Origin: an uncultured Gammaproteobacteria bacterium
GTDB lineage: Bacteria; Patescibacteriota; Patescibacteriia; UBA1558; GWA2-36-10
Reading direction: 5' to 3'
Length of the DNA stretch: 52,093 nt
NCBI GenBank assembly: GCA_964604515.1
Contig: CAZRZA010000004.1
Span: forward strand, 1-52,093
Position numbers and translations under genes: made by a program. The notes under the pieces are model-generated. The model searched no databases. It worked only from the letters and a program-made list of their open reading frames with translations, and was not told where the DNA came from. Below, one piece after another: positions 8,089 through 38,199 of this stretch. How positions within the stretch are numbered: the stretch's first letter is position 1; each line of letters opens with the position of its first letter.

Positions 8089-8634
8089 ATGCCTAAACAA
8101 AACCTACAACAAGGTAAACGTTGGTATGTTCTACATACTTATTCAGGCTATGAAGAAAATGTTTCTCGTAATCTAAAACAAAGAATAGAATCAATGGATA
8201 TGGAGGATAAGATTTTTGATATCCTTATTCCTTTAGAAACAAAGATTAAGATAAAGAATGGAAAAAGAAAGAAAGTACAAGAAAAGATCTTTCCAGGCTA
8301 TGTTTTGGTTTGTATGGTTGTTACAGATGCTTCTTGGTATGTAGTTAGAAATACACCTAATGTTACTGGTTTTGTAGGGTCGGGCAATACTCCTACTCCT
8401 GTTTCTGAAGAAGAGATTAAATCTTTGAAAGATAGAATGGGTAATGATGAGCCAGAATTTAAAATAGACATGGCTAAGGGTGATAATGTTCAAATAGTAG
8501 ATGGACCCTTTAAAGATTTTGAAGGTAAAATATCAGAAGTTGATGAAGCGAGAGGTAAGGCTAAAGTATTGGTATCTATGTTTGGTAGAGAAACACCTGT
8601 CGAATTAGATTTTTTACAAATTAAAAAGAATTAA
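8089..8634 (+). CDS. nusG: Transcription termination/antitermination factor NusG
   Basis: WYVLHTYSGYE, FPGYVLV, KOW motif, FGRETPVELDF. Confidence 0.98.
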   Translation: MPKQNLQQGKRWYVLHTYSGYEENVSRNLKQRIESMDMEDKIFDILIPLETKIKIKNGKRKKVQEKIFPGYVLVCMVVTDASWYVVRNTPNVTGFVGSGNTPTPVSEEEIKSLKDRMGNDEPEFKIDMAKGDNVQIVDGPFKDFEGKISEVDEARGKAKVLVSMFGRETPVELDFLQIKKN

Positions 8635-8635
8635 A

Positions 8636-8674
8636 AGAGGGAGCTTTACTTAGTCTCTAAGGTGTTTGACCTCT
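8636..8674 (+). promoter_or_regulatory. Putative ribosomal protein L1-binding leader, copy 1
   Basis: AGAGG/CCTCT stem with GA..GA internal loop; 37/39 identical to copy at 9120. Confidence 0.7.
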
Positions 8675-8688
8675 AAAATAATAAATAT

Positions 8689-9114: not shown

Positions 9115-9119
9115 ATAAG

Positions 9120-9158
9120 AGAGGGAACCTTACTTAGTCTCTAAGGTGTTTGACCTCT
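9120..9158 (+). promoter_or_regulatory. Putative ribosomal protein L1-binding leader, copy 2
   Basis: AGAGGGAACCTTACTTAGTCTCTAAGGTGTTTGACCTCT, directly upstream of rplA. Confidence 0.7.
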
Positions 9159-9172
9159 AAAATATTAAATAT

Positions 9173-17233: not shown

Positions 17234-17271
17234 AAAAGTCAACCTAAATATAGTAGGTTGACTTTTGTTTT
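17234..17271 (+). terminator. Intrinsic terminator after hisS, overlapping -35 of the rpsU promoter
   Basis: AAAAGTCAACCTA-loop-TAGGTTGACTTTT; TTGACT(17258)-17bp-CATTAT. Confidence 0.75.
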
Positions 17272-17340
17272 AAAAACTGTCATTATTATATTAAGAATAA
17301 TGCTAAAATAGTGTTATTATTATAATTAATATTTAAGAAA

Positions 17341-17348
17341 GAGAGGTG
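17341..17348 (+). promoter_or_regulatory. Shine-Dalgarno sequence of rpsU
   Basis: GAGAGGTG 8 nt before GTG start. Confidence 0.75.
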
Positions 17349-17356
17349 CCTGTTTT

Positions 17357-17596
17357 GTGTCAGAAGTTAAAAGAAAAGATAATGAATCATTTGAGAGTTT
17401 AATTCGTAGATTTACTAAAAAAACATTACAAAGTGGTAAATTATTACAAGCGAGAAAGATTAGATTTTTTAAGAAAAAGAGTAATGTTAAAAAAGCAAAA
17501 TCTAAAGCTTTACGATCTCTAGGAATAGAAAAAAATATAGATTATCTTAAAAAGATTGGTAAATGGGAAGAATATCCTAAAAAGAGAAAAAGATAA
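17357..17596 (+). CDS. rpsU: 30S ribosomal protein bS21
   Basis: EVKRKDNESFESLIRRF pattern; upstream of yqeY as in many bacteria. Confidence 0.9.
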   Translation: MSEVKRKDNESFESLIRRFTKKTLQSGKLLQARKIRFFKKKSNVKKAKSKALRSLGIEKNIDYLKKIGKWEEYPKKRKR

Positions 17597-17645
17597 GAAT
17601 TTATACTCTGTTTATCAGTTTGGTAAACAGGAATAAGAGTTTATC

Positions 17646-18074
17646 ATGAATTTAAAAGAAAGATTAGATCAAGACTTAAAAGATTCTTTAAAGAGTAAAG
17701 ACAGTGTTAAAACAACAACTTTACGTCTTTTAAAGAGTAATATTAAGAATAAAGAAATAGATTTAAAGGAAGAGTTAAAAGAAGAAGAAATAATTAAAGT
17801 ATTAAGACAAGAATTAAAGAAAAGATCAGAGTCTATTAAGGCCTATCAAGAAGCAGGTCGAGATGAATTAAGAATTCAGGAAGAAAAAGAATATAAAATT
17901 ATTAATGAATATTTACCAGAATTAATGTCCGAAGATGATATTATTAAAATAGTTGAAGAAATAATAGCTACTGGTTTAGATAATTTTGGTCAAATAATGA
18001 AAGAAGTAATGATTAAGACTAAAGGCCAAGCTGACGGTGCTTTAGTACAAAAAATAGTAAAAGATAAAATTTAA
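17646..18074 (+). CDS. yqeY: GatB/YqeY domain protein
   Basis: LRLLKSNIKN, KKRSESI..Y..AGR, YLP, FGQIMK, GQADG. Confidence 0.92.
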   Translation: MNLKERLDQDLKDSLKSKDSVKTTTLRLLKSNIKNKEIDLKEELKEEEIIKVLRQELKKRSESIKAYQEAGRDELRIQEEKEYKIINEYLPELMSEDDIIKIVEEIIATGLDNFGQIMKEVMIKTKGQADGALVQKIVKDKI

Positions 18075-18082
18075 AGAAAAAA

Positions 18083-19645
18083 ATGAAATCCATGCTTATC
18101 AAAAAGAAAACAATTGTTATGTTTGTAGTTTTTTTAACAATTGTTTTTTTATTACCTCAAATAGGTTTTGCTCAAAATGAATTTGGTTTAGAAGATGTAG
18201 ACACTGCTTTGGGTGGCAATGATTTAACAGATATAATAGCTAATATTATTAATATCTTCTTAGGTCTTTTGGGTATTATAGCTACTATAATTATGCTTTA
18301 TGGTGGTTATTTATGGATGACTGCTCAGGGCGATGGTGATCAGGTTATTAAAGCTAAACAAATTATTATTAATGGTATTATTGGTTTAATAATAATAATG
18401 TTATCCTATGCTATTGTTTCTTTTGTTTTTAGTGCTTTAGTTGACGCTACCGATAATAATGGTGGATCTGGAAGTGGTAATGGTGGTGGCTCATATAGTG
18501 GTGGGGGCTTAGGAGCTGGTATTTTAGAAAGTCATTATCCTGTTCGTGATGCAACAGATATTGTTATGAATACAAATATATTTATTACCTTTAAAGAAGC
18601 TTTAAATATAGAAGATTTTATTATAACTGATTGTAATCATTTAGATTCTGAATATACAGAATGTATTGATAATGAATATATTATTTTAATGTCAGGAGAA
18701 GATAATCAATTAGAAGCAGGTGACTTAATGGTTAAGTATGATAGTGAACAAAAAGTTTTTGAATTTAATCCTTATGGTAATAGTAATACTTATTTAGATT
18801 CTGATGGAAACACAGAATATACTATGGTTTTAAATAATTTAGAAACAGTTAATGGTAACAGTGTTTTCTTTGCCGGAGCATATGCTTGGGACTTTGTAGT
18901 TTCTAATGATATTGATACTACGCCCCCTGAAATTTCTTCTATTATACCAATTAATGAATCTTCTGCTAATGCTAGAAATAGTATAGTACAAATAAACTTT
19001 AGCGAAGCTATTAATCCTAATACAGCAGCGGGCATTCAAGATGCTAATAATAATTTTACCAATATTATACTTAGTGATGGTAGTCCTATTAGTGGTCAAT
19101 ATTTAATATCTAATCAATATCAAACAGTAGAGTTTAATACTTTTGCTGCTTGCGGAGAGAATTCTTGCGGAGGAATAGTATATTGTTTACCAGGAGACAG
19201 TAATATAAACGGTATTGTTTCTGTAAATATTACAGATATGGCTGGTAATTCTTTAATAGAAGAGTATCTCTGGTCTTTTACAACAAGTAATGAAGTAGAT
19301 TTAGAAGAACCTAAGATAATCTCTAGAAGTCAGGGCGGTGATATTAGTTTAGAAAATCCATTAAAAGTAGTATTTGATAAAAGCTTATCTACCGCTTCTC
19401 TAAATTCAGATAACATTTCTTTATATATGACTGAATCAGGGGATTGGAATTATTGGTTAAATACAGATACTTGTGATGCTAGTATTAGTAATTGTAATTT
19501 AAATTGTACTGAGGGTGTAATTTGTAATAATACTATAAATATAAATCATGATAAATTTTTACCAGCAACTAATTATATTCCAGAATTAGATTCTGGAATT
19601 AAAGATTTAATGCAAAACTGTTGGTATCCTTGTGATTTAAATTAA
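18083..19645 (+). CDS. VirB2/TrbC-like pilin fused to Ig-like (Big_5) domains
   Basis: Signal peptide (GFA-Q), two-TM pilin YGGYLWMTAQG...KAK..I..GIIGLII, Gly linker, three Big_5-like repeats (NIFITF, IVQINFSE, LKVVFDK). Confidence 0.75.
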   Translation: MKSMLIKKKTIVMFVVFLTIVFLLPQIGFAQNEFGLEDVDTALGGNDLTDIIANIINIFLGLLGIIATIIMLYGGYLWMTAQGDGDQVIKAKQIIINGIIGLIIIMLSYAIVSFVFSALVDATDNNGGSGSGNGGGSYSGGGLGAGILESHYPVRDATDIVMNTNIFITFKEALNIEDFIITDCNHLDSEYTECIDNEYIILMSGEDNQLEAGDLMVKYDSEQKVFEFNPYGNSNTYLDSDGNTEYTMVLNNLETVNGNSVFFAGAYAWDFVVSNDIDTTPPEISSIIPINESSANARNSIVQINFSEAINPNTAAGIQDANNNFTNIILSDGSPISGQYLISNQYQTVEFNTFAACGENSCGGIVYCLPGDSNINGIVSVNITDMAGNSLIEEYLWSFTTSNEVDLEEPKIISRSQGGDISLENPLKVVFDKSLSTASLNSDNISLYMTESGDWNYWLNTDTCDASISNCNLNCTEGVICNNTININHDKFLPATNYIPELDSGIKDLMQNCWYPCDLN

Positions 19646-19652
19646 ATAAAAA

Positions 19653-22600
19653 ATGTTTAAATATTTTAATACAATCTTAATATCATTACTTTTACCCTGG
19701 CATAGTCTTTTTGCTCAAGAGGATAATTTTGGCTTAGAAGATGTTGATACCGCTTTAGGTAGTAATGAATTAACAGATATAATAGTTAATATTATTAATA
19801 TTTTCTTAGGATTATTAGGTATTCTTGCTGTTTCTTTAATATTATATGGTGGCTTCTTATGGATGACTTCTCAAGGTAATTCAGACCAAGTTACCAAGGC
19901 TAAACAATTAATAATCTCTGCTATTATAGGTTTGGTAATTATCCTTTCATCTTATGCTATAGCTTCTTATATTATTGGTTCTTTAAGTGAAGCAACAGGA
20001 ATAACAGAGTCTGATATTAATACTAGCACAACAGATTCTCCAGGCAGTGGAGACCCTGATGGTGGTTTGGGCTGTCCAGAGCCTCTGGATGAAGATGAAA
20101 TAAAGATTTGTTCTATTTCTCCTAGTAATGGAAGTAGTGGTTCCTATGTAACAATTAGAGGTTGGAATTTTGGAGAAATAGAGGGTAGTGTAACTTTTGA
20201 TAATAATGCTGGTAATACAACTTCAGCTGATTTAGTATCTTGTAATGGTAATGTTCTTTGGACAGATACAGAAATAAAAGTAGTTGTTCCTAATATAAAT
20301 GAAGCTACATATAGTGTTTATGTTAATAATATTGATTATACTTCTTTTGTTGTTTCAGAGGGTGCTAGTGGCCCTAATATTGCTTGTTTAACACCAGACC
20401 TTGGTCCAGGGGGAGAGTCAGTAGTGATAAGTGGGATTGGTTTTGGAGATCAAGGTGGTAATGTTACTATGAATGGTTGGGTGAATAATTTAGAAGAAGA
20501 AATAATATTAAATAGTACTTCTTGGTCTGAAAATGAAATAAGTATAAGTATTAATAATAATGCTTTAAGTAGTGATATTAGTATTAATACCGTAGAAGAG
20601 TTAAGTTCTTCTGGTGAATACTTTACTGTTTCTTGTCAAAGTGGAGAAGAGTGCTCTTCAGGATGTTGTGATAATAACTCTTGTTATTCTATAGATATTT
20701 GTATGGAAAATGATCCAGAGGGTATTTATATTAGTAATATTTATCCTCCTGATGGAGCGGGCGGAAGTTTAGTAACTATAACTGGTTCTGGTTTTGGAGA
20801 GACAGCGGGAATTGTTACATTTTATGATCAAGATTCAGGGGAGCCTGCTAATTTTCCTAGTACTATTAATAATAATTGTAGTGATTATTGGACAAATAAT
20901 ACTATTGTTGTTGAGGTTCCCCCTGATTTAAATAATGAATTATTAGACATTAGAGTTAATATTAATAGTCAAGAAAGTAATTCTGGTTCTTTTGAAAAAA
21001 ATGAAGTAATTAGACCAGGTATTTGTGGTTTAAGTGCTGATTCGGGAGTATTTGAAGACATTATTACTTTTTATGGTCTTAATTTTTCTGAAAATGATCA
21101 GGTTTTATTTGGGGGAGATGACTGGGCTGTTGATATTAATTATACCGATAGTCAAACAGTAACCGCTAGTATTCCTAATATGAGTAGTCAGAATCTAGAT
21201 GTATTTATTTCATCTAATAATATTAATAGTAATTCTTATCCTTTTACTATAGCTAGTACAGAGGGTGGTAAGCCTTTTATCACTAGTATTATTCCTGAAG
21301 ATTTTGCTAATACTTTAGAATATATAACAATTTATGGTGGTAATTTTGGTAATAGTGGTTTAGTTTATGTAATAGATTCTAATGGTACAGAACATCCTTT
21401 CGATATAGATTTAATACCTACACAATGTAATTCTAATTTTTGGCAAGATGATCAGATAATAGTAGCATTTTCTGACCAGGGATCAAAGATTAAAATTGTT
21501 AGAAATGATGATATAGCCAGTGATGAATATAATTATAATATACAAGGAGGATCAGCAGCACCTAGTATAGCTTGCATTATTCCTGATAATGGTCCGGTAA
21601 ATTCTTTAGTAAATATATATGGAAATTCATTTATAGGAGATAGTAGGATTATTTTTACCGATAATGTAGAAGCAGATTTAGGAGCATCTATTATAAATTC
21701 GCAACAAATATTAAATATTCCTGTACCAGAAGATTCAGAAACAGGAAATGTTTACTATACTAATGATATTAATAGTAATGCTCTCTTATTCGAAGTAGGG
21801 TCTTGTTCAGGGGACAGTGATTGTGATAATCAATTATGTTGTTCTGGTGATTTTGGTAATTATTGTGCAGATAGTTGTGAAATTGAGCCAAATCAATGTG
21901 AAGCCTCTTGGACTATAACTAGTGCCTCCGAAGAGTTTTCTTTGGTAGAGAGCTATGAATGTAGCAATAATACACAGTCTCCCGCTCCTTGGCCTCATGG
22001 TTTAGAAGAATATAGTTCAGAAGATGCATATTTAGATACTAATATTAGTATTAGATTTACAAGAGAAATAGAGGTAGATGATTTATTAAATATAGATAAT
22101 TTAAAATTATATAGTTGTGAAGATTATAATTCAAATTGTAATACTTTAATTAATGGTGAATATTTAAGTATAGATAATAATAAAGGAGTTTCTTTTAATC
22201 CCCAAAGTAATTTAAATCCAAGTACTTGGTATCAAGTAGTATTAGGTAGTTTTAATTCTAAGATAGGTAATGATACTTTAGAGTTAAGTAATTATCCTTG
22301 GCATTTTAAAACAGCCGGAGGATTATGTCAGATAGATAGCATATCTTTATCACCAGACTCAAGTCCAAATAGAGATATTTATTTAGGTAATGAAAAAACA
22401 TATACAGCTATACCACAATCTGCTAATTGTAATATTTGTGGCAGTGATTATAATTGGTCTTCAGTGTTACTTGGTAGCGATGATTATATTAGTACCATAG
22501 CTTCTAGTAATAATCCAAGCAATATTTTTTGGACCAAATTAAGAGGAGACATTATAAGTGATCCAGGATATACTTCTTTAGGGGTTAATGTAGAGGATTA

Positions 22601-25600
22601 TGCGGCCTCTACAGATATAATGGTTTTAGCTCCTAATTTAGAATTAATGGACTATGGACCACAATGTGATGATTCTTGTAATAATCCAGAAGTTTGGGCA
22701 GAATTTAATACAAATATAGCAGTATCCTCAGACTTACAATTATATAGTTGTAATAGTGTTGGTGATTGCTCAGGAGATAGCCTAGTTTCTTCTTGGGATA
22801 TTACAGATAATATTATTAAAATAACTAATTTAAATATACCCCTTGGTTTATACAAGGCTGTTTTGGGAGAAAATATAGAAAATGAATATGGCTATAGTTT
22901 AGGTTATGAACATAATTGGTATTTTACAGTTGGTAATCAGAATTGTGAGTTTTCTAGTATAGACATTAAACCAGATAATTATTTATCTGGAGAATTAAAT
23001 GAAATTATAGAGTATGAGGCTATGCCATATTCAGATACTGGTGTCTGTAATGGGCAGCCTTTAAATTGTGAAAATTGTTCTTGGTCTTGGTCTTTGGATA
23101 ATACTTTAGCTAATTTAAGTTCTGGTTCAGGTCCCGAGGCTACAATTACTACTTTGGCAGAAGGAGAGGTTAATATTTCAGCTAGTATTATTGACAATAA
23201 TGTAGTAGCAGGACAAGATTCATTGACCATTTCTTTGGGTACTGATGGTGATGATGAGGAGTACCCACCTAATAATCAGGCTCCAGTAATATTAAATGAT
23301 AATCCTGATGAAAGTAATACTTGTCTTAATGCTTCTATTTTTGTTACTTTTAGTGAATTGATGAATGAGCAATCTTTAAGAGATAATATGCATGTTTATA
23401 AATTAGCTGATTCAAATTATACAGAAATAAGCGGTTCCTTTATTTTTGCTAAAGATAATTATAATGGTGATGATGATAATGAAACTAGAGTAATATTTAA
23501 TCCTGATGAATATTTAGAAGCAGGAGGAGTTTATAAAGGTTTAATTGGTGAAAATGTAGTAAGTAGTGCGGGCCTATTATTATCATATATTAATCATAAT
23601 GAAGATTTGGAGCCTGGTCATTTATGGACCTTTTCAGGAGGAGAAGATTTGTGTCAAATTTCTTATATCGATATAGATCCTGAAGAATTAATCTTTACTA
23701 TACCTAATAGTTTAGAAAGTTTTACAGCTCAAGCTTATGATATTTCAGGGATAGCCCTAAATGTAGATACATATAACTGGTCTTTAATTGACACTAATCT
23801 ATTTTCTTTAGAAAATAATAATAGTCAAACAGCTAATTTATCTTCTTTAAATAATAATGGAGAAACATATTTAAATGTTCAGGTGTCTGATTCTGATCCA
23901 GCCATAGGTCAAGGCAGTTCCTTAGCTAGAGTAGAGGCTTTTCTATGTGAAAATCCTTGGCCAAGTAATAATGGAGAGTTTAATATTTTTTCTGATAATG
24001 ATTATGGTAATAATGACTTTAATTTCTCTATGTATTATTGTCAAAATGAAGGTCTAGAAGGCAGTGAATTATTACCATACTTACCAGATAGTAATTTTAT
24101 TATGCAAGAAGGTGGTGATGTTTTAAAAGAATATGTTTTTGTTATTAATCCAGCTCTAACTATGATTAATAATAATTTTGTTTATAATAGAAATGATAAT
24201 AGATCTTGGTGGCAAAAGATATTTAATTGGAGAATAATTAAAGCTCAGTCTTTTGCTGTTTATAATTTTATGATTACAGAAAATGATGGTAATCAAATAA
24301 GCTTACAATGGCAAGATGATACAGAGACATATGCTAATTCTTTTAATTTAGAACGGAGAACAGCTGGAGCATCTTGGACAGAGGTATCTGGAAATTTATC
24401 TGATTTAGCTCCTAATTTATTTGGTTATACTGATCAAGATATTTTAACTGGTATTTCTTATGAATACCGAGTTGGTTTAGGTGGCAATTATACTGATCCC
24501 ATAACAGTAACTGCGGGAGAAGATGATCCTTCTTTTGATATTATTGGTCTTAGAATTATTAGTAATATGGATCATTTATCAGCTAGAGACTGGTTTAGAC
24601 AGCAGGCTCCTAATGCTAATGCTACGGGACAATTAATAGAAGTTGCTGGTTATGAGGCTTTGAGGGTTGGTAATACTATTTATATTGCGGGTACTAATTT
24701 TAATGATACTAGTTTATATACAAATATCTATGCCCTTTCTTATAATATTGGGGCTCGTCCTTCTACTATAAATATTTATAATCAATTAATAGCTAATTTT
24801 GAATTAAATACTAATTTACCAACTATTGGTAATAGTAATACTTGTTTTGAAGAAAGTACTTTAGAGTGTTTTGATGATTATGATTGTGGGGTAGGTGATT
24901 ATTGTTTATCTACAGGATCTAAATTACATCGAGACACTAAACGTTTAAGTGATTTGATTAGTATTAAAGATAGTTTAGATAATTATGGTTCTCAGAATAA
25001 GTTTTGTAGTACAAATATGGCTCCTTGTTTTAATGATAGCAATTGTTTAGGGGATAGTAATTATTGTCAAGAATATTATCCTTCTTTAAACTCAGGTACA
25101 TTTGTTAATGGTATGACTACTACTAAATGGGGTTCTTGGAATGAAGAATTAGGCAATACCATCGGAGAGTCTTTGCCGGTTGATCCGGTTAATAAATTTA
25201 ATGGTTGTCCCTATGGTATAGATGACAGTACTTGTTGGGATGAGGGAGCACAAAATTTTATTTGTCCCCAAAACTCTCTTATTTATTTATATCAACAAAA
25301 TGATTTAACTTCATATAGTATTGGTGCTAACTTTGAGTCAGGAAGTAGCTTCACTAATGCCTTAAATGGTAATAATGGTATAGGAGTAAACAGTATCCTT
25401 AATATTATTGATTTAGATAATGTTTGTAATGCAGATACATATAATGCCGCTGGCCTACCAAGTACTCAGGTTTGTGGTGACGGTATTGTTAATGAATTAG
25501 AAGAGTGTGATGGTAATCCAGCTAATATTTGCCCAGAAAACTATTGGGAAGCATATACGGTTGGTTGTTATCCAGCAGGGTCTTTAAATAGTGTTGGTGA

Positions 25601-27653
25601 TTTAATTGAATGCACTTGGTATATAACTCCTGATAATTATGATTGTGGTGGTTATTGTGGAGATGCTGAAGTATATGATTTATATGAAGATTGTGAGGTA
25701 GGTGTCAATGAAGCTGACTTTAATTGTTTAGATGATAATAATAATTATTATTCTCCTCTTTGCCAATCTTGTTTTCCTGTTTGTGATGATGGTTCAGCTG
25801 CTGCCTCCTGTAATGATGGTTACTGGGATCCTAATAATGAGCAATGTGATGATTCTGGTAGTCCAACTGGTTTAAATAATTGGGACTGTACTAATGGAGA
25901 TAATATTTCTTGTAATAATTGTCAGGTTACTTGTAGTGGTTCTGGTATTTCATATTATGGACAATGTGGTAATACAGCTACTGAGGGACCAGAAGAATGT
26001 GATTATAGTGGTTATGGACCAATTTCAACAGCCTTAGCCAATAGTGTTAACACTCAATATGCTTGTTCTTATATTTGTGAAGATACGGGAGGATACTGTG
26101 GTGACAGCGAAGAACAAACTAGCTATGGCGAGGAGTGTGATCCAAGTAACTATACTGTTCCTACTCCTATAAATTCTAATCCTAATATACAATATGAATG
26201 CTCTAATATTTGTGCAGACGCTGGAGGATATTGTGATGATGGTAGTATTCAGACTAGTTATGGTGAAGAATGTGATACAGCTAGTTATGCTTATCCAAGT
26301 CCCAGTGAAGCTATTGACAGTAATACTCAGTATAACTGCACAGCTAATTGTAAGATAGATGGAGGATATTGTGGTGATGGAGTAGAACAAGCTAATTATA
26401 ATGAAGAATGTGATCCAAGTGGCTATACCGCACCTTCTCCTATAAATTCTAACTTAAGCACACAATATTCTTGCTCTAATACCTGCGCAGACACCGGAGG
26501 ATATTGTGGTAACAATAGTATTGAGAGCTCTGAAATATGTGAAAGTACTTTACATAGTCAACCAACTCCAGGACAATCTGGTATAGAGTGGGAGTATGAG
26601 TGTGATGCTGATAGTTGTCAGTATACGGGAGGATATTGTGGTGATAGTAATATTCAAGAAAACTATGGTGAGCAGTGTGATTTTAACAGTTATGTTTCAC
26701 CAACACCTCAAAACTCTTCAAACATTGATCAATATAGTTGCGATAATAATTGTCAGATATTTGGTGGTTATTGTGGTGACGGCAATATTGATAGTTATTA
26801 TGAAGACTGTGAAATTGGTATGAGTTGTAAAGATTATGATTCAGCATATTTAGCGGGTCAAGTTACTTGTGGTGATCCAGGAACAAGCAATGCTTGTCAA
26901 GTAACAGAAACAGCATCTTGTTGTAGTAGTGATAAGCTGCAGGCTAAATTTTTAGTAGATAATAGTTTTGAATTATGGGTTAATGGTAGTTCAATTGGCA
27001 CAGGCGATCATTGGGGTGGTTGTGATGGTGGGGGAGTTGGTGATGCCTGTGAATTTGAGATAGATGCAGCAGATGGTTTTTCTTTTGATAATTCAGAAAA
27101 TATTTTAGCATTTAAAGCTCATGACACTAGTGGCGGTTACGGTGTAATAGGTACATTTTCTTGTCAAGAACACACTTGTAAAAGTATTTGTTATAAAGGT
27201 AGTGATGCAGGAGAAATATGTAGTTCGGATGCAAATTGTTCAGAAGGAACTTGCGTGCATCCAGCAGCTGGAAAAGAAGGACAAGTATGTACAGAGAACA
27301 ATGATTGTAGAACCTATACCTTAGACAGTGGAGAGGAGGCTACTGGTAGTACGAATAGTAAACCAAGTCTTTGTTTACCAGATGACTTTGGTATTACAAC
27401 TAGACCAGACGGTCTTTGGAAATGTGTTCATGGATCTGATCCAGGAGACGGTTGGAAAGAGGCGGAGTATACAGAAAGCTCAGATTGGCAAGCACCAATA
27501 GAAGAATGGTTTAGTGGTGCTTGGGGATTATCAAGTCATCCTTCATATTGGAAGCATATGGTTCCGGGAGCAGTTTCTATCTGGGACGCTAGGGTTGAAT
27601 CAGGTTCAGATATTTATTGTCGTTATGTTCTGGTAACAGGCGCTGATCTATAA
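19653..27653 (+). CDS. Giant (2666 aa) pilin-anchored multidomain surface protein / putative adhesin
   Basis: Signal peptide, VirB2-like pilin, six IPT/TIG repeats, Big_5/Ig pairs, FnIII-like domain, GspG/pilin-like segment, CGDG..EECD repeats, C-terminal lectin-like domain. Confidence 0.8.
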   Translation: MFKYFNTILISLLLPWHSLFAQEDNFGLEDVDTALGSNELTDIIVNIINIFLGLLGILAVSLILYGGFLWMTSQGNSDQVTKAKQLIISAIIGLVIILSSYAIASYIIGSLSEATGITESDINTSTTDSPGSGDPDGGLGCPEPLDEDEIKICSISPSNGSSGSYVTIRGWNFGEIEGSVTFDNNAGNTTSADLVSCNGNVLWTDTEIKVVVPNINEATYSVYVNNIDYTSFVVSEGASGPNIACLTPDLGPGGESVVISGIGFGDQGGNVTMNGWVNNLEEEIILNSTSWSENEISISINNNALSSDISINTVEELSSSGEYFTVSCQSGEECSSGCCDNNSCYSIDICMENDPEGIYISNIYPPDGAGGSLVTITGSGFGETAGIVTFYDQDSGEPANFPSTINNNCSDYWTNNTIVVEVPPDLNNELLDIRVNINSQESNSGSFEKNEVIRPGICGLSADSGVFEDIITFYGLNFSENDQVLFGGDDWAVDINYTDSQTVTASIPNMSSQNLDVFISSNNINSNSYPFTIASTEGGKPFITSIIPEDFANTLEYITIYGGNFGNSGLVYVIDSNGTEHPFDIDLIPTQCNSNFWQDDQIIVAFSDQGSKIKIVRNDDIASDEYNYNIQGGSAAPSIACIIPDNGPVNSLVNIYGNSFIGDSRIIFTDNVEADLGASIINSQQILNIPVPEDSETGNVYYTNDINSNALLFEVGSCSGDSDCDNQLCCSGDFGNYCADSCEIEPNQCEASWTITSASEEFSLVESYECSNNTQSPAPWPHGLEEYSSEDAYLDTNISIRFTREIEVDDLLNIDNLKLYSCEDYNSNCNTLINGEYLSIDNNKGVSFNPQSNLNPSTWYQVVLGSFNSKIGNDTLELSNYPWHFKTAGGLCQIDSISLSPDSSPNRDIYLGNEKTYTAIPQSANCNICGSDYNWSSVLLGSDDYISTIASSNNPSNIFWTKLRGDIISDPGYTSLGVNVEDYAASTDIMVLAPNLELMDYGPQCDDSCNNPEVWAEFNTNIAVSSDLQLYSCNSVGDCSGDSLVSSWDITDNIIKITNLNIPLGLYKAVLGENIENEYGYSLGYEHNWYFTVGNQNCEFSSIDIKPDNYLSGELNEIIEYEAMPYSDTGVCNGQPLNCENCSWSWSLDNTLANLSSGSGPEATITTLAEGEVNISASIIDNNVVAGQDSLTISLGTDGDDEEYPPNNQAPVILNDNPDESNTCLNASIFVTFSELMNEQSLRDNMHVYKLADSNYTEISGSFIFAKDNYNGDDDNETRVIFNPDEYLEAGGVYKGLIGENVVSSAGLLLSYINHNEDLEPGHLWTFSGGEDLCQISYIDIDPEELIFTIPNSLESFTAQAYDISGIALNVDTYNWSLIDTNLFSLENNNSQTANLSSLNNNGETYLNVQVSDSDPAIGQGSSLARVEAFLCENPWPSNNGEFNIFSDNDYGNNDFNFSMYYCQNEGLEGSELLPYLPDSNFIMQEGGDVLKEYVFVINPALTMINNNFVYNRNDNRSWWQKIFNWRIIKAQSFAVYNFMITENDGNQISLQWQDDTETYANSFNLERRTAGASWTEVSGNLSDLAPNLFGYTDQDILTGISYEYRVGLGGNYTDPITVTAGEDDPSFDIIGLRIISNMDHLSARDWFRQQAPNANATGQLIEVAGYEALRVGNTIYIAGTNFNDTSLYTNIYALSYNIGARPSTINIYNQLIANFELNTNLPTIGNSNTCFEESTLECFDDYDCGVGDYCLSTGSKLHRDTKRLSDLISIKDSLDNYGSQNKFCSTNMAPCFNDSNCLGDSNYCQEYYPSLNSGTFVNGMTTTKWGSWNEELGNTIGESLPVDPVNKFNGCPYGIDDSTCWDEGAQNFICPQNSLIYLYQQNDLTSYSIGANFESGSSFTNALNGNNGIGVNSILNIIDLDNVCNADTYNAAGLPSTQVCGDGIVNELEECDGNPANICPENYWEAYTVGCYPAGSLNSVGDLIECTWYITPDNYDCGGYCGDAEVYDLYEDCEVGVNEADFNCLDDNNNYYSPLCQSCFPVCDDGSAAASCNDGYWDPNNEQCDDSGSPTGLNNWDCTNGDNISCNNCQVTCSGSGISYYGQCGNTATEGPEECDYSGYGPISTALANSVNTQYACSYICEDTGGYCGDSEEQTSYGEECDPSNYTVPTPINSNPNIQYECSNICADAGGYCDDGSIQTSYGEECDTASYAYPSPSEAIDSNTQYNCTANCKIDGGYCGDGVEQANYNEECDPSGYTAPSPINSNLSTQYSCSNTCADTGGYCGNNSIESSEICESTLHSQPTPGQSGIEWEYECDADSCQYTGGYCGDSNIQENYGEQCDFNSYVSPTPQNSSNIDQYSCDNNCQIFGGYCGDGNIDSYYEDCEIGMSCKDYDSAYLAGQVTCGDPGTSNACQVTETASCCSSDKLQAKFLVDNSFELWVNGSSIGTGDHWGGCDGGGVGDACEFEIDAADGFSFDNSENILAFKAHDTSGGYGVIGTFSCQEHTCKSICYKGSDAGEICSSDANCSEGTCVHPAAGKEGQVCTENNDCRTYTLDSGEEATGSTNSKPSLCLPDDFGITTRPDGLWKCVHGSDPGDGWKEAEYTESSDWQAPIEEWFSGAWGLSSHPSYWKHMVPGAVSIWDARVESGSDIYCRYVLVTGADL
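25965..26771 (+). repeat. Six tandem ~45-aa Cys-rich repeats (Myxococcus Cys-rich/DUF4215-like)
   Basis: Unit CGD..Q..YGEECD...Y..P.P..S...QY.C...C...GGY; DNA motif ggaggatattgtg recurs. Confidence 0.9.
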
Positions 27654-27720
27654 TAAAATATTAAAATAAATTATGTTTAATTAAATAAAAAAAGAAGAGA
27701 AAAAAGAAGTAATTAATGAT

Positions 27721-28443
27721 ATGTTTTCTGGTTTAGATACTGGGGATAAACCTAGCGCTATTCAGTCTGGTAAATTAGATATAAAAAACAATACTACTTT
27801 AGCAGAAACAGAAAGTATTATTCCCGAGAAAGAGAATAAGACGGGTATAATAAAGAAAGTAGTTATTTTCTTTATTATAGCTATAATATCTTTAGTAGTA
27901 TTTATTCTAATCTTTTCTTTCTTTAAAAAAGATAATAAAGAAGTGATTATTGAACAAAATAATACAATAGAAGAAGAGGCTATTAATAATATTAAAGAAG
28001 AGATAATTATTGAAGAGCCAATTATAGATTTAAGTAAAATAGATGATGATTCTGATGGATTAAGCAATGCAGAAGAAATAGAATTAGGAACAGATATTTA
28101 TAATCCAGATACAGATAATGATGGCTTATTTGATAGAGAAGAAGTTAAGATTTGGGGAACAAATCCTTTAGATCCAGATTCAGATAATGATGGTAACTTA
28201 GATGGTGTGGAGGTAGAAAATGGTTATAATCCATTAGGAGACGGCAAGTTACCAGGTTTAGAGAATTTTGATATAATAGAAGCTGATCCTAATTTATTAG
28301 ACAACGATGAGGATGGTTTGACTAATGCTCAAGAAATAGAATTAGGCACAGATTTAAATAATCCAGACACAGATGGTGATGGCTATTTGGATGGAGCAGA
28401 AGTAGAAAATGGTTATAATCCATTAGGAGAGGGTACTTTATAA
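27721..28443 (+). CDS. Membrane-anchored protein with bacterial TSP3-like Ca-binding repeats
   Basis: One TM; repeats DxDxDGLxxxEE.xGTD..NPDTDxDG; exact 29-bp duplication at 28213-28241 and 28402-28430. Confidence 0.85.
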   Translation: MFSGLDTGDKPSAIQSGKLDIKNNTTLAETESIIPEKENKTGIIKKVVIFFIIAIISLVVFILIFSFFKKDNKEVIIEQNNTIEEEAINNIKEEIIIEEPIIDLSKIDDDSDGLSNAEEIELGTDIYNPDTDNDGLFDREEVKIWGTNPLDPDSDNDGNLDGVEVENGYNPLGDGKLPGLENFDIIEADPNLLDNDEDGLTNAQEIELGTDLNNPDTDGDGYLDGAEVENGYNPLGEGTL

Positions 28444-36906: not shown

Positions 36907-38199
36907 ATGAAGAAAAGTGAATTATTTATTTTATTTAGTTTGGTATTTTTAATTACTACTTTTATTATAGTAATTAAGAAACCTATTATATTTGGTAATT
37001 CATTAGAATTATCTTTTTTTGAATATGATAAGTATTATACTTTTACTGGTCAAATAATTAAAAAAGAAAAAAAGATTAAGGGTAATAGATATTTAGTGCT
37101 TAGTGAATTTGGTAAAATATTAATATCTACTCCTCTTTATCCAGAGTATAATTTAAATGATAATTTAGAAATATCTTGTAAGTTAAAAAAAGCTGAGCCT
37201 ATTATTGATGATTATGGTTATCAATTTTTTTATGATAAGTATTTAGCTAAAGATAATATATTTATATTATGTTCTTATCCTCAAATTAAGTTTTTAAATA
37301 ATAATAATTATAATATTTTAAGTATTAAAGAATACTTTTCTAGTAATTTAAATAATTATTTAAGAGAACCAGCTTCTTCTTTAGCTAAAGCTATGCTTTT
37401 AGCAGAAAGAAGAGAATTAAATTTAGAATTAAGAACTGCTTTTAGTAAAACTGGTTTAAGTCATATTATAGCTATTTCAGGATTACACATAGCTATTATA
37501 GTATATTTATTACAAATATTATTAATATCTTTAAATAAAAGAATATCTTTTTTTCTTATTAGTTTTATTCTCTTCTTTTATTTATTTTTATTAAACTTTC
37601 CTTCTTCAGCCTTAAGAGCTTCTTTAATGATTATTATTGTTCTTTTAACTCCTTTTCTTAACAGAAATACTAAACCTCTCTATAGTCTAATATTAGTAGC
37701 CGATCTTTTAGTATTAATTAATCCTTATATTATAGTTTATGACATTGGTTTTCAATTATCTTTTTTAGCTGTTTTAGGATTACTATTCTATATTAAATAT
37801 TTTCAGAAAGTATTAATATTTATACCTAATAAGTATAAGTTAAGAGAGGTTCTTTCTGTTACCTTAGCTGCGCAAGTATTTACTTGGCCTTTAATAGTAT
37901 ATTATTTTCATATCTTTTCTTTTATTGCTCCTTTAGCTAATTTTTTAATATTACCATTTTTACCTTTTATATTAGGCTTAGCTATCTTTTTGTCTCTTTT
38001 TGGTTTTATACCATTTTTAGCTGAATTAATAGCTCGGCCTTTATTTGTATTATTAAAGATAATAGTTATTATAGTACAGTATTTAAGCAATATACCTTTA
38101 GCATATTTAGAAATACATAATTTTGATTTAAAATATTTAAGTTTATCTTTTTTATTCTTAATATTATTAACATTTATAATAAAGCCCTATGAAACTTAA
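36907..38199 (+). CDS. comEC: ComEC/Rec2 membrane (Competence) domain protein
   Basis: TGLSHIIAISGLH, SALRA, NPY...DIGFQLSFLA. Confidence 0.93.
   Translation: MKKSELFILFSLVFLITTFIIVIKKPIIFGNSLELSFFEYDKYYTFTGQIIKKEKKIKGNRYLVLSEFGKILISTPLYPEYNLNDNLEISCKLKKAEPIIDDYGYQFFYDKYLAKDNIFILCSYPQIKFLNNNNYNILSIKEYFSSNLNNYLREPASSLAKAMLLAERRELNLELRTAFSKTGLSHIIAISGLHIAIIVYLLQILLISLNKRISFFLISFILFFYLFLLNFPSSALRASLMIIIVLLTPFLNRNTKPLYSLILVADLLVLINPYIIVYDIGFQLSFLAVLGLLFYIKYFQKVLIFIPNKYKLREVLSVTLAAQVFTWPLIVYYFHIFSFIAPLANFLILPFLPFILGLAIFLSLFGFIPFLAELIARPLFVLLKIIVIIVQYLSNIPLAYLEIHNFDLKYLSLSFLFLILLTFIIKPYET

Follow-up and report, generated by a model that had tools for sequence, protein, structure and literature searches.

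A conserved extended Shine-Dalgarno sequence before rpsU in Patescibacteria and a possible bS21 feedback circuit

We investigated rpsU, the gene encoding ribosomal protein bS21, together with its leader in a genome of the candidate phyla radiation (CPR, Patescibacteria). The window, that is the whole stretch of DNA which was analyzed, corresponds to contig C4 (1-52093), one of the 33 contigs of a 647-kb genome (28% G+C, 94.5% complete). A first-pass annotation of this window had assigned it to the CPR, and the closest named relatives of its bS21 did belong there: they came from Parcubacteria group bacterium, then from Doudnabacteria, Moraniibacteriota and Paceibacterota. The same annotation had suggested that rpsU is governed by a feedback circuit like that of Flavobacterium, in which bS21 influences its own synthesis. 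Such a circuit has so far been described only within Bacteroidota and proven in Bacteroidia (PMC7797042, PMC9976891, PMC13000457; here and below, published systems are presented as described in the available parts of the cited papers). We observed that rpsU of this genome and of its relatives is preceded by an extended Shine-Dalgarno (SD) sequence, while SD use in the genome as a whole is uncommon.

The sequence upstream of rpsU is aAGAAAGAGAGGTGcctgttttGTG. It contains GAGAGGTG at 17341-17348, which is followed by the 8-nt spacer CCTGTTTT (17349-17356, + strand) and by the GTG start codon (17357-17359, + strand). The strong SD placed 8 nt before GTG in the first-pass annotation is therefore present, and it forms part of a longer element, AGAAAG-A-GAGGTG (17336-17348, + strand). 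To describe pairing we used the 16S tail GGATCACCTCCTTTCT, which is the end of 12 of the 12 full-length 16S genes from family- and order-level relatives and carries the canonical anti-SD. The predicted helix consists of 6 + 6 bp (17336-17341 and 17343-17348) with 16S 3'-UCUUUC-CUCCAC-5', with A17342 bulged. Its duplex energy was -16.2 kcal/mol (12 bp) in a longer window and -15.5 kcal/mol in the 19-nt window used for scoring. Relative to the start codon the helix occupies positions -21 to -9, and the core G residues stand at -11 and -12.

Upstream of this element, after the hisS stop codon, lies a likely hisS terminator (17240-17271, + strand), a hairpin CAACCTA-N7-TAGGTTG followed by acTTTTgTTTT, which was recognized by eye only and was unlisted in the consensus scan. 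Therefore rpsU would be the first gene of a new transcript. Two overlapping -10-like hexamers are found at 17315-17326 (+ strand): TATTAT (17315-17320), with TG just upstream and TTAAGA 18 nt upstream (TTAAGA-18-TATTAT, 9 of 12 matches), and TATAAT (17321-17326), identified by reading the sequence. Promoter-like sites numbered 7 in the region and 2.9 +/- 1.9 in shuffled sequences, so the evidence for a promoter is weak. A search of sequencing runs listed 14 entries with DNA and 0 with RNA, and from the hexamers the transcript start is placed, by inference, at approximately 17327-17333. Since these boxes are situated directly upstream, the 5' untranslated region would be only about 24-30 nt long and would start almost at the complement. 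The initiation region of rpsU was unusually unstructured (minimum free energy -2.6 kcal/mol, z +2.09). A riboswitch-like or protein-binding hairpin in the leader was ruled out, as no stable fold was found. Rfam gave 0 families in the window at gathering scores.

The rpsU gene (17357-17596, + strand) encodes a protein of 79 aa plus stop, and there was one rpsU match in this genome. The protein was recognized by Pfam PF01165 Ribosomal_S21 (E 7.3e-8, 32.5 bits versus a cut-off of 27, residues 3-53) and by bS21 chains of the PDB, of which 28 sequences matched at E up to 1 (best E 4.4e-5). Its N-terminus, MSEVKRKDNESFESLIRRF, aligned from residue 1 with 38 relatives, therefore the GTG start is right. 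We could also confirm the C-terminal extension noticed at first pass (IDYLKKIGKWEEYPKKRKR). The lineage-specific C-terminal part, GIEKNIDYLKKIGKWEEYPKKRKR (codons 56-79; 17522-17593, + strand), carries the conserved residues Y63, G68 and K69, as well as an acidic pair and then a basic tail. In the alignment of 38 bS21 sequences G68 was invariant, and Y63 and K69 were present in at least 90%. An AlphaFold model (mean pLDDT, the predicted local distance difference test, 77.6) consisted of a long helix at residues 44-67 and, from 68 to 79, of a tail that lacked regular structure. Its comparison with the PDB by VIA-align returned only bS21 chains (Z 2.6-3.8, root-mean-square deviation 10-12 A, no 7jil row) and was uninformative about placement of the C-terminus. 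A tblastn search with this bS21 against 50,697 phage records, made to find a bridge to the F. johnsoniae sequence, gave 0 matches.

Further, we quantitated SD strength throughout the genome. A simple open reading frame (ORF) caller gave 665 genes (90% coding, code 11; proteins shorter than 60 aa were left uncalled), and for 651 of them positions -20 to -2 were paired with the 15-nt 16S tail in ViennaRNA duplexfold. An energy of -4.5 kcal/mol was taken as reaching an SD, and -13 kcal/mol is the published criterion of a strong rpsU site. Windows before internal ATGs and a window shifted upstream served as controls. With first in-frame starts, rpsU was the strongest of the 651 genes at -15.5. Only 13.5% of genes reached -4.5, compared with 27.1% before internal ATGs and 20.2% in the upstream-shifted window; SD use is thus uncommon genome-wide, as had been proposed, when energies are calculated against the tail of the relatives. 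The pattern GGAGG-N5-10-ATG occurred 46 times versus 53 for the reversed control. First-start codons were ATG in 579, TTG in 56 and GTG in 30 of 665 genes. The usual start context (504 genes) had 50-65% A at positions -11 to -2, 61% T at -1 and 3-11% G, in agreement with the G-poor AATAT-ATG context described at first pass. On contig C4, 3 of 52 called genes reached -4.5: rpsU (-15.5), a gene at 36907 (-10.4) and uL22 (-5.8).

Among ribosomal protein genes the position of rpsU was clear. Pfam scans of all 403 called proteins of up to 300 aa identified 43 such genes; this number lacks a few small ones, because proteins shorter than 60 aa were uncalled. The order was rpsU (-15.5), uS15 (-10.4), uS2 (-8.0), uL6 (-7.1, which probably reflects a wrong start) and uL22 (-5.8), and the other 38 were weaker than -4.5. 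The first-pass annotation had considered rpsU the only ribosomal protein gene with a strong SD. This stands for a very strong, extended SD; it does not stand for strong SDs in general, given uS15 (GGAGAAAGGA, -10.4) and the weak AAGGT of uS2 (-8.0). Of the neighbouring genes, hisS, EF-G, EF-Tu, uL11, uL1, uL3, uL4, uL23 and uL2 did not reach -4.5. No SD was found on EF-Tu, EF-G or the genes of the S10 and spc operons; therefore a strong SD is no mark of general high expression here. In the survey of McNutt et al. 2023 (PMC9976891) the criterion was that no other ribosomal protein gene pairs more strongly than rpsU and that rpsU lies below -13 kcal/mol. In our genome rpsU was first of 43 and below -13, with a complement over nearly the whole 3' tail; our energies come from duplexfold with a 15-nt tail and those of the survey from free_scan, so that they are not strictly comparable.

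Apart from rpsU, a clear SD (taGGAGaAAGGAaaaaatATG) was found on a single ribosomal protein gene, that of uS15 (C1:62513-62854, - strand; L016:5513-5854). The uS15 protein has an acidic/basic C-terminal extension of approximately 25 aa.

The 22-nt windows of the whole genome, coding ones included, contained 310 that reach -13 and 41 that beat the rpsU site. The observation in a single genome is therefore not beyond chance, and its significance rests on conservation. PF01165 was detected in 38 of 40 relatives searched (24 from the same family and 14 of 16 from the same order), and 20 kb around each rpsU was examined. The extended element was present in 38 of 38 relatives with rpsU, at -16.2 to -20.7 kcal/mol, with the consensus AGAAAG-N-GAGGTGA(T). 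Counting our genome, the helix comprised 10-15 bp in 39 genomes; it was uninterrupted in 4, had a single bulged mRNA base in 28 and showed other irregularities in 7. In the relatives 2-7 nt separated the last paired base from the start, and the distance was normal for an SD in all 39. Start codons of rpsU were GTG in 28, TTG in 3 and ATG in 8 of these genomes (non-ATG in 31/39). The rpsU site was the strongest of its 20-kb locus in 34 of 38 relatives; in the other four it was beaten by a hypothetical ORF of approximately 95-108 aa with AAGGAGGTGA. The other 500 genes in these loci reached -4.5 in 15.8% of cases (18.6% in a mock window) and -13 in 1.2%. Another scan, this time of named genomes, returned 61 loci. 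Of these, 57 could be evaluated and 53 scored -13 or lower; the four misses included one archaeal false match, and several loci were the same contigs as in the 38 relatives.

These data bear on the view that the element is not translational at all, being instead a promoter-proximal transcription element, a segment of a small RNA or a match that arose by chance. The 310 windows mentioned above do show that matches of this strength arise by chance in coding DNA. The distance of the element from the rpsU start is nevertheless fixed in 38 of 38 relatives and in 53 of 57 further loci, while its flanks vary; moreover, the window contains no Rfam family and the region does not fold. We consider this explanation very improbable.

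What we observed is the element itself, how strong it is and in which register, how nearly exclusive it is among start sites and how well it is conserved, as well as the SD-poor background. These observations are consistent with feedback on rpsU as in Flavobacterium, in which a long helix excludes bS21, so that subunits free of bS21 translate rpsU. In such a scheme the rpsU mRNA would begin, a few nucleotides past its promoter, with a 13-nt stretch that pairs with nearly all of the single-stranded 3' tail of 16S rRNA, and a weak start, GTG or TTG, would come next at the usual SD spacing. By analogy with Flavobacterium johnsoniae, a helix of this length could not coexist with bS21 on the 30S platform. 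At the same time, the G-rich, non-AUG region would be a poor substrate for the A-rich, SD-independent initiation of other genes. Therefore 30S subunits without bS21, either late assembly intermediates or particles that had lost the protein, would translate rpsU best, and when bS21 filled the ribosome pool rpsU translation would drop. The result would be a negative feedback sensing bS21 occupancy. What we infer here is helix formation in vivo, exclusion of the longer bS21 of this lineage and the feedback that would follow. From the leader sequences and the comparison with published systems we lean modestly towards this explanation. A general sequestration of the anti-SD is neither required by it nor supported by our results.

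We also analyzed a sample of the phylum. PF01165 was detected in 242 of 301 sampled genomes. The sample of loci comprised 80 from 67 families, of which 77 were usable. In 43 of 77 the rpsU gene had a site of -13 or lower at the distance of an SD, and 13 of the remaining 34 had a complement of that strength 20-60 nt upstream (within 70 nt), compared with 4.8% of 631 control genes. Overall, a strong anti-SD complement was found in the rpsU leader of 56 of 77 sampled genomes; the trait is therefore old within Patescibacteria. Conservation of the rpsU SD in relatives, which had been named at first pass as a check of the proposal, was thus found in the order and, less uniformly, in the phylum. Non-ATG starts of rpsU accompanied the strong site, occurring in 28 of 43 genomes with rpsU at or below -13 and in 9 of 34 of the others.

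The distant complements are GGAGGTG-like and lie 20-60 nt upstream of the rpsU ATG (L100, L102, L103, L104, L105, L109, L110, L167 and L179), which is more than the spacing of a normal SD. Between the complement and the ATG of L102 there is a TTCTT/AAGAA hairpin.

Complements placed 20-60 nt upstream in 13 of 34 genomes, like a standby or titration site, favor another explanation, namely that the leader senses free mature 16S 3' tails and not bS21. The circuit would then be an assembly checkpoint tying synthesis of the late-binding bS21 to nearly finished subunits, and steric exclusion would be unneeded. In line with this, the complement reaches the last nucleotide of the tail of the relatives (CUUUCU-3'), which is present only after 3' processing, and bS21 is among the last proteins joining the 30S subunit (PMC9976891). 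The normal SD distance in all 39 genomes of the order, as for productive initiation, argues against it, and only experiments could separate such a sensor from feedback through exclusion of bS21. We regard the sensor of free tails as improbable.

Several results weigh against the feedback through bS21 exclusion, and we present them in this and the following paragraphs. The assembly does not contain the genome's own 16S; because of that its anti-SD had to be inferred from the 12 relatives, and the proposed feedback needs CACCUCCUUUCU in the 16S of the genome itself. In 28 of 39 genomes the helix is interrupted by one bulged base, unlike the 13 consecutive pairs of F. johnsoniae. When any start within 25 codons was allowed, rpsU was second of 656 genes, behind an SSB paralog at -17.7. 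A truncated ORF running off the left end of contig C9 (- strand, first ~40 bases) carries tatatattGAGAGGGGGTGAAATGATG at -20.7, which is also stronger than rpsU. With these two rival start-proximal sites and the 310 windows at or below -13, uniqueness of the rpsU site in the genome was ruled out, and the published pattern of a single outlying strong-SD gene per genome was not found here. The SSB paralog itself (C8:404-811, - strand; L032:407-811) carries AGAAAGGAAAGTGATCC, and 2 nt separate the end of this sequence from an ATG, which is codon 4 of the ORF as called. Its site is a 15-17-nt near-complement of the 16S tail in a register unlike that of rpsU.

Further, 52 of 651 genes were at or below -8 (8.0% versus 4.0-6.6% in controls), with ordinary AAGGAG(A) SDs at -12 to -9. 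With about 8% of genes carrying ordinary, well-placed SDs, ribosomes replete with bS21 probably can use an SD and are not SD-blind. Strong rpsU SDs were also seen where the phylum uses SDs more (26 of 59 genomes, see below), and in those lineages they could be ordinary SDs. The 52 SD-led genes are short (median 115 aa versus 242) and mostly without a Pfam family, and the motif [AT]GT[TA]CAT was found approximately 21-38 nt upstream in 16 of 52 of them versus 3 of 599 others. They look like a class with its own promoter or leader, as judged from this motif. In the window only the gene at 36907-38199 belongs to the class.

Such genes lend some weight to the possibility that the rpsU element is just a strong ribosome-binding site without feedback, serving a short leader and a weak start, with all ribosomes alike. 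SD pairing seems generally available, as ~8% of genes use ordinary SDs, mostly small ones which apparently have their own promoters and short leaders; a conserved promoter-like box stands just upstream of rpsU as well. Non-ATG starts accompany the strong SD, as compensation predicts, and strong rpsU SDs occur in lineages which use SDs more. Compensation nevertheless leaves unexplained why the weak start is conserved in 31 of 39 genomes, and a plain site does not explain why the register coincides with that of the Flavobacterium switch, which is proven. An SD is missing from other highly expressed genes and from 38 of the 43 ribosomal protein genes, operon-first ones included. The other SD-led genes have 5-8-nt AAGGAG(A) sequences and not 12-15-bp complements to the last 16S bases. 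Moreover, the sampled clade with the clearest SD use (bS21 start xIQVTRKD; 49% versus 22% in the mock window, 125 genes; loci L117, L127, L129, L143, L147, L158 and L160) had rpsU without an SD in 6 of 7 genomes. We consider a plain strong site rather unlikely.

Next to be weighed is the pocket that holds the 16S tail in Bacteroidia, which is formed by bS21 (Tyr54, Ile55), bS18 and an extension of bS6 (PMC7797042, PMC9976891, PMC13000457). According to Jha et al. 2020 (PMC7797042), Tyr54 of bS21 stacks on A1534, Lys/Arg37, Phe50, Asn56 and Gln58 of bS18 are uniquely conserved in Bacteroidia, and Trp100, Arg103 and Lys107 in the C-terminal helix of bS6 bind the last two nucleotides. In our genome, bS18 residues 6-70 matched residues 29-93 of 7jil_w, which are equal in length and were taken as ungapped. 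Under this assumption 0 of the 4 Bacteroidia-specific positions are kept (Lys37, Phe50, Asn56 and Gln58 correspond to V14, Q27, S33 and Y35), and 2 of 12 mapped positions are the same (Tyr32 = Y9, Arg65 = R42). The bS6 protein (C1:19692-20168, - strand; L014:692-1168; its GTG start was probably called 13 codons too far upstream) extends approximately 50 aa past its Pfam domain; this extension is K/E-rich and has no Trp, as read from its own sequence and not from an alignment with the F. johnsoniae chain. The alignment of bS21 with 7jil_z covered only residues 5-50 of both and was weak (E 0.24). Residues 54-55 are S-L, and a conserved Tyr followed by L is found at 63, 9 residues beyond the position of Tyr54 and inside the predicted helix 44-67.

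We also examined whether low SD use depends on bS21, taking the count of GGAGG-N5-10-ATG over the reversed pattern as a crude measure in place of gene-level SD energies. None of the 15 genomes of family f24 had a PF01165 match, and the ratio was 0.72-1.53 in 15 of 15, that is, without SD enrichment. By this measure f24, without detectable bS21, is equally SD-poor, so that low SD use in the phylum would not need bS21. In family f13 of the same class, with PF01165 in 0 of 3 genomes, the ratio was 1.8-2.2, which is within the 1.1-3.2 of its bS21-bearing neighbours. The PF01165 tally and the motif count include one unpublished genome (G190), on which no claim depends.

Taken together, the Flavobacterium-like circuit proposed at first pass is supported in part. 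The SD-poor lineage, the canonical anti-SD in relatives, the same helix register, rpsU as winner below -13 and conservation in 38 of 38 relatives speak for it. The named mechanism, sequestration of the anti-SD by bS21, bS18 and bS6, is not supported: none of the four bS18 residues is kept in the ungapped match, the bS6 extension lacks Trp, the conserved Tyr of bS21 lies 9 residues past the position of Tyr54, f24 is equally SD-poor by the motif count and approximately 8% of genes have normal SDs.

The phylum sample offered one more association. In 18 genomes (16 families) with bS21 ending ...LKKxGKL..., SDs were found in 25% of genes versus 28% in the mock window, and rpsU was at or below -13 in 17 of 18. 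In the 59 genomes with other bS21 types the values were 40% versus 31%, with rpsU at or below -13 in 26. A GKL-type C-terminus may thus go with SD-poor genomes; this is suggestive only, because the genomes are related, each contributed 4-27 genes and the motif was defined after seeing the data. A bolder proposal is that the extended, mostly bulged rpsU helix is an ancient phylum-wide sensor of bS21 occupancy, acting by steric exclusion alone while the anti-SD stays accessible. The longer, YLKKIGKLDE-type bS21 C-terminus would have co-evolved with it, and the small, mostly unknown SD-led genes (~8% here) would form a regulon with preferential translation at times when bS21-free subunits are plentiful. 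We find this proposal rather unlikely. If true, the sensor and the SD-led regulon would be a ribosome-composition switch linking assembly state to accessory-gene expression in minimal cells.

In summary, these results suggest that the competition between a long SD and bS21 is a logic independent of the Bacteroidia-specific pocket, because its hallmarks are kept across the order and recur in the phylum with a different bS21 tail and without the pocket residues. Among bacteria, no case of a 'specialized ribosome' is clearer than the Flavobacterium bS21 circuit. The counterpart of this circuit here would offer an evolutionary reason for retention of the anti-SD in SD-poor lineages, and a testable handle on translation control in organisms which have very few regulators and are not yet growable alone. 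The 16S tail of Bacillus subtilis (...CCUCCUUUCU), a species that tolerates loss of rpsU, is the same as that of the relatives used here, hence a test in this surrogate looks feasible. In our literature search we found no report joining bS21 with Patescibacteria, or rpsU and SD with CPR; supplementary rpsU maps of the Flavobacterium papers might include other phyla. The published survey of the rpsU extended SD names Bacteroidia and Chlorobia only, as far as its available parts go (PMC9976891). In CPR, bS21 was described as larger and as often absent in Parcubacteria, approximately half of which are without CCTCCT (Tsurumaki et al. 2022, PMC9297842).

Other features of the window are as follows. 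Between rpsU and the next gene there is a hairpin, CTGTTTA-N9-TAAACAG (17608-17630, + strand), found by reading, with 7 bp and no T-run after it. The next gene in the same direction is yqeY-like (17646-18074, + strand; Pfam YqeY, E 2.5e-40), and its SD, at -4.3, is not strong. Surface-protein genes are located further along, at 18083-28443. Near-identical leaders of approximately 45 nt (...GAGGGAgCtTTACTTAGTCTCTAAGGTGTTTGACCTCTAAAATA...) precede rplK (uL11) and rplA (uL1) at 8634-8688 and 9117-9172. The repeat may be a duplicated L1-binding autoregulatory site, judging by its sequence; a search of Rfam around both leaders gave no family at E up to 1. We also looked for the frameshift site of prfB, which could report on anti-SD use in elongation, and the pattern gave one match, inside an unrelated ORF.

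Finally, we compared the rpsU system with those already known. The closest one is that of Bacteroidia, where rpsU alone keeps an extended SD (up to 13 bp, with a mode at approximately -20 kcal/mol) and is translated faster by ribosomes lacking bS21 (PMC9976891). In F. johnsoniae a 13-bp helix spans positions -20 to -8, G-11, G-12 and G-15 are essential, and the helix clashes with the C-terminal helix of bS21 (PMC13000457, 2026). As in F. johnsoniae and other Bacteroidia, our genome is SD-poor, the anti-SD is canonical (here, in the relatives) and initiation regions are A-rich; rpsU is the winner at or below -13, and SD-like sequences before starts are rarer than in the mock window. The helix register agrees within one nucleotide (-20 to -8 there, -21 to -9 here). 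The differences are that our lineage belongs to another phylum, its helix usually has a one-base bulge (28/39 genomes) and its start is mostly GTG or TTG. Its bS21 has approximately 80 aa with DYLKKIGKLDE plus a basic tail, whereas that of F. johnsoniae has 64 aa with Tyr54-Ile55. F. johnsoniae has essentially one strong site; here approximately 8% of genes have ordinary SDs, and one or two sites are comparably strong. The F. johnsoniae circuit was shown experimentally; ours is proposed from sequence.

Chlorobia present a similar case outside Bacteroidia: rpsU is the winner below -13, most mRNAs are without an SD, bS21 has no Tyr54 and the mechanism is unproven (PMC9976891). In Chlorobia, however, 11 further residues in contact with the tail are reported to be conserved or to have conservative substitutions; here only 2 of 12 mapped bS18 positions are the same, and 0 of 4 Bacteroidia-specific ones. 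Chlorobia also belong to the same phylum as Bacteroidia, unlike the lineage described here.

Classical feedback on ribosomal protein and initiation factor genes includes S15 on rpsO, L1 on the L11 operon and IF3 on infC with its AUU start. Control there depends on a structured element which resembles the rRNA site of the protein and captures its free form, or on proof-reading of the start codon by the factor. The proposed circuit would resemble them in being negative and in acting at initiation on its own mRNA, with an unusual start as part of the device, as in infC. It would differ from them in that the leader is unstructured and rRNA-complementary, and the sensor would be the ribosome without the protein. 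A further comparison is with bS21 paralogs of Francisella tularensis. This species has several paralogs, with no extended-SD logic described in the available parts of the papers, while our genome has one rpsU match; in both, the bS21 content of ribosomes alters mRNA choice, as reported for F. tularensis (PMC9578407, PMC13374519) and as we propose for the lineage studied here.

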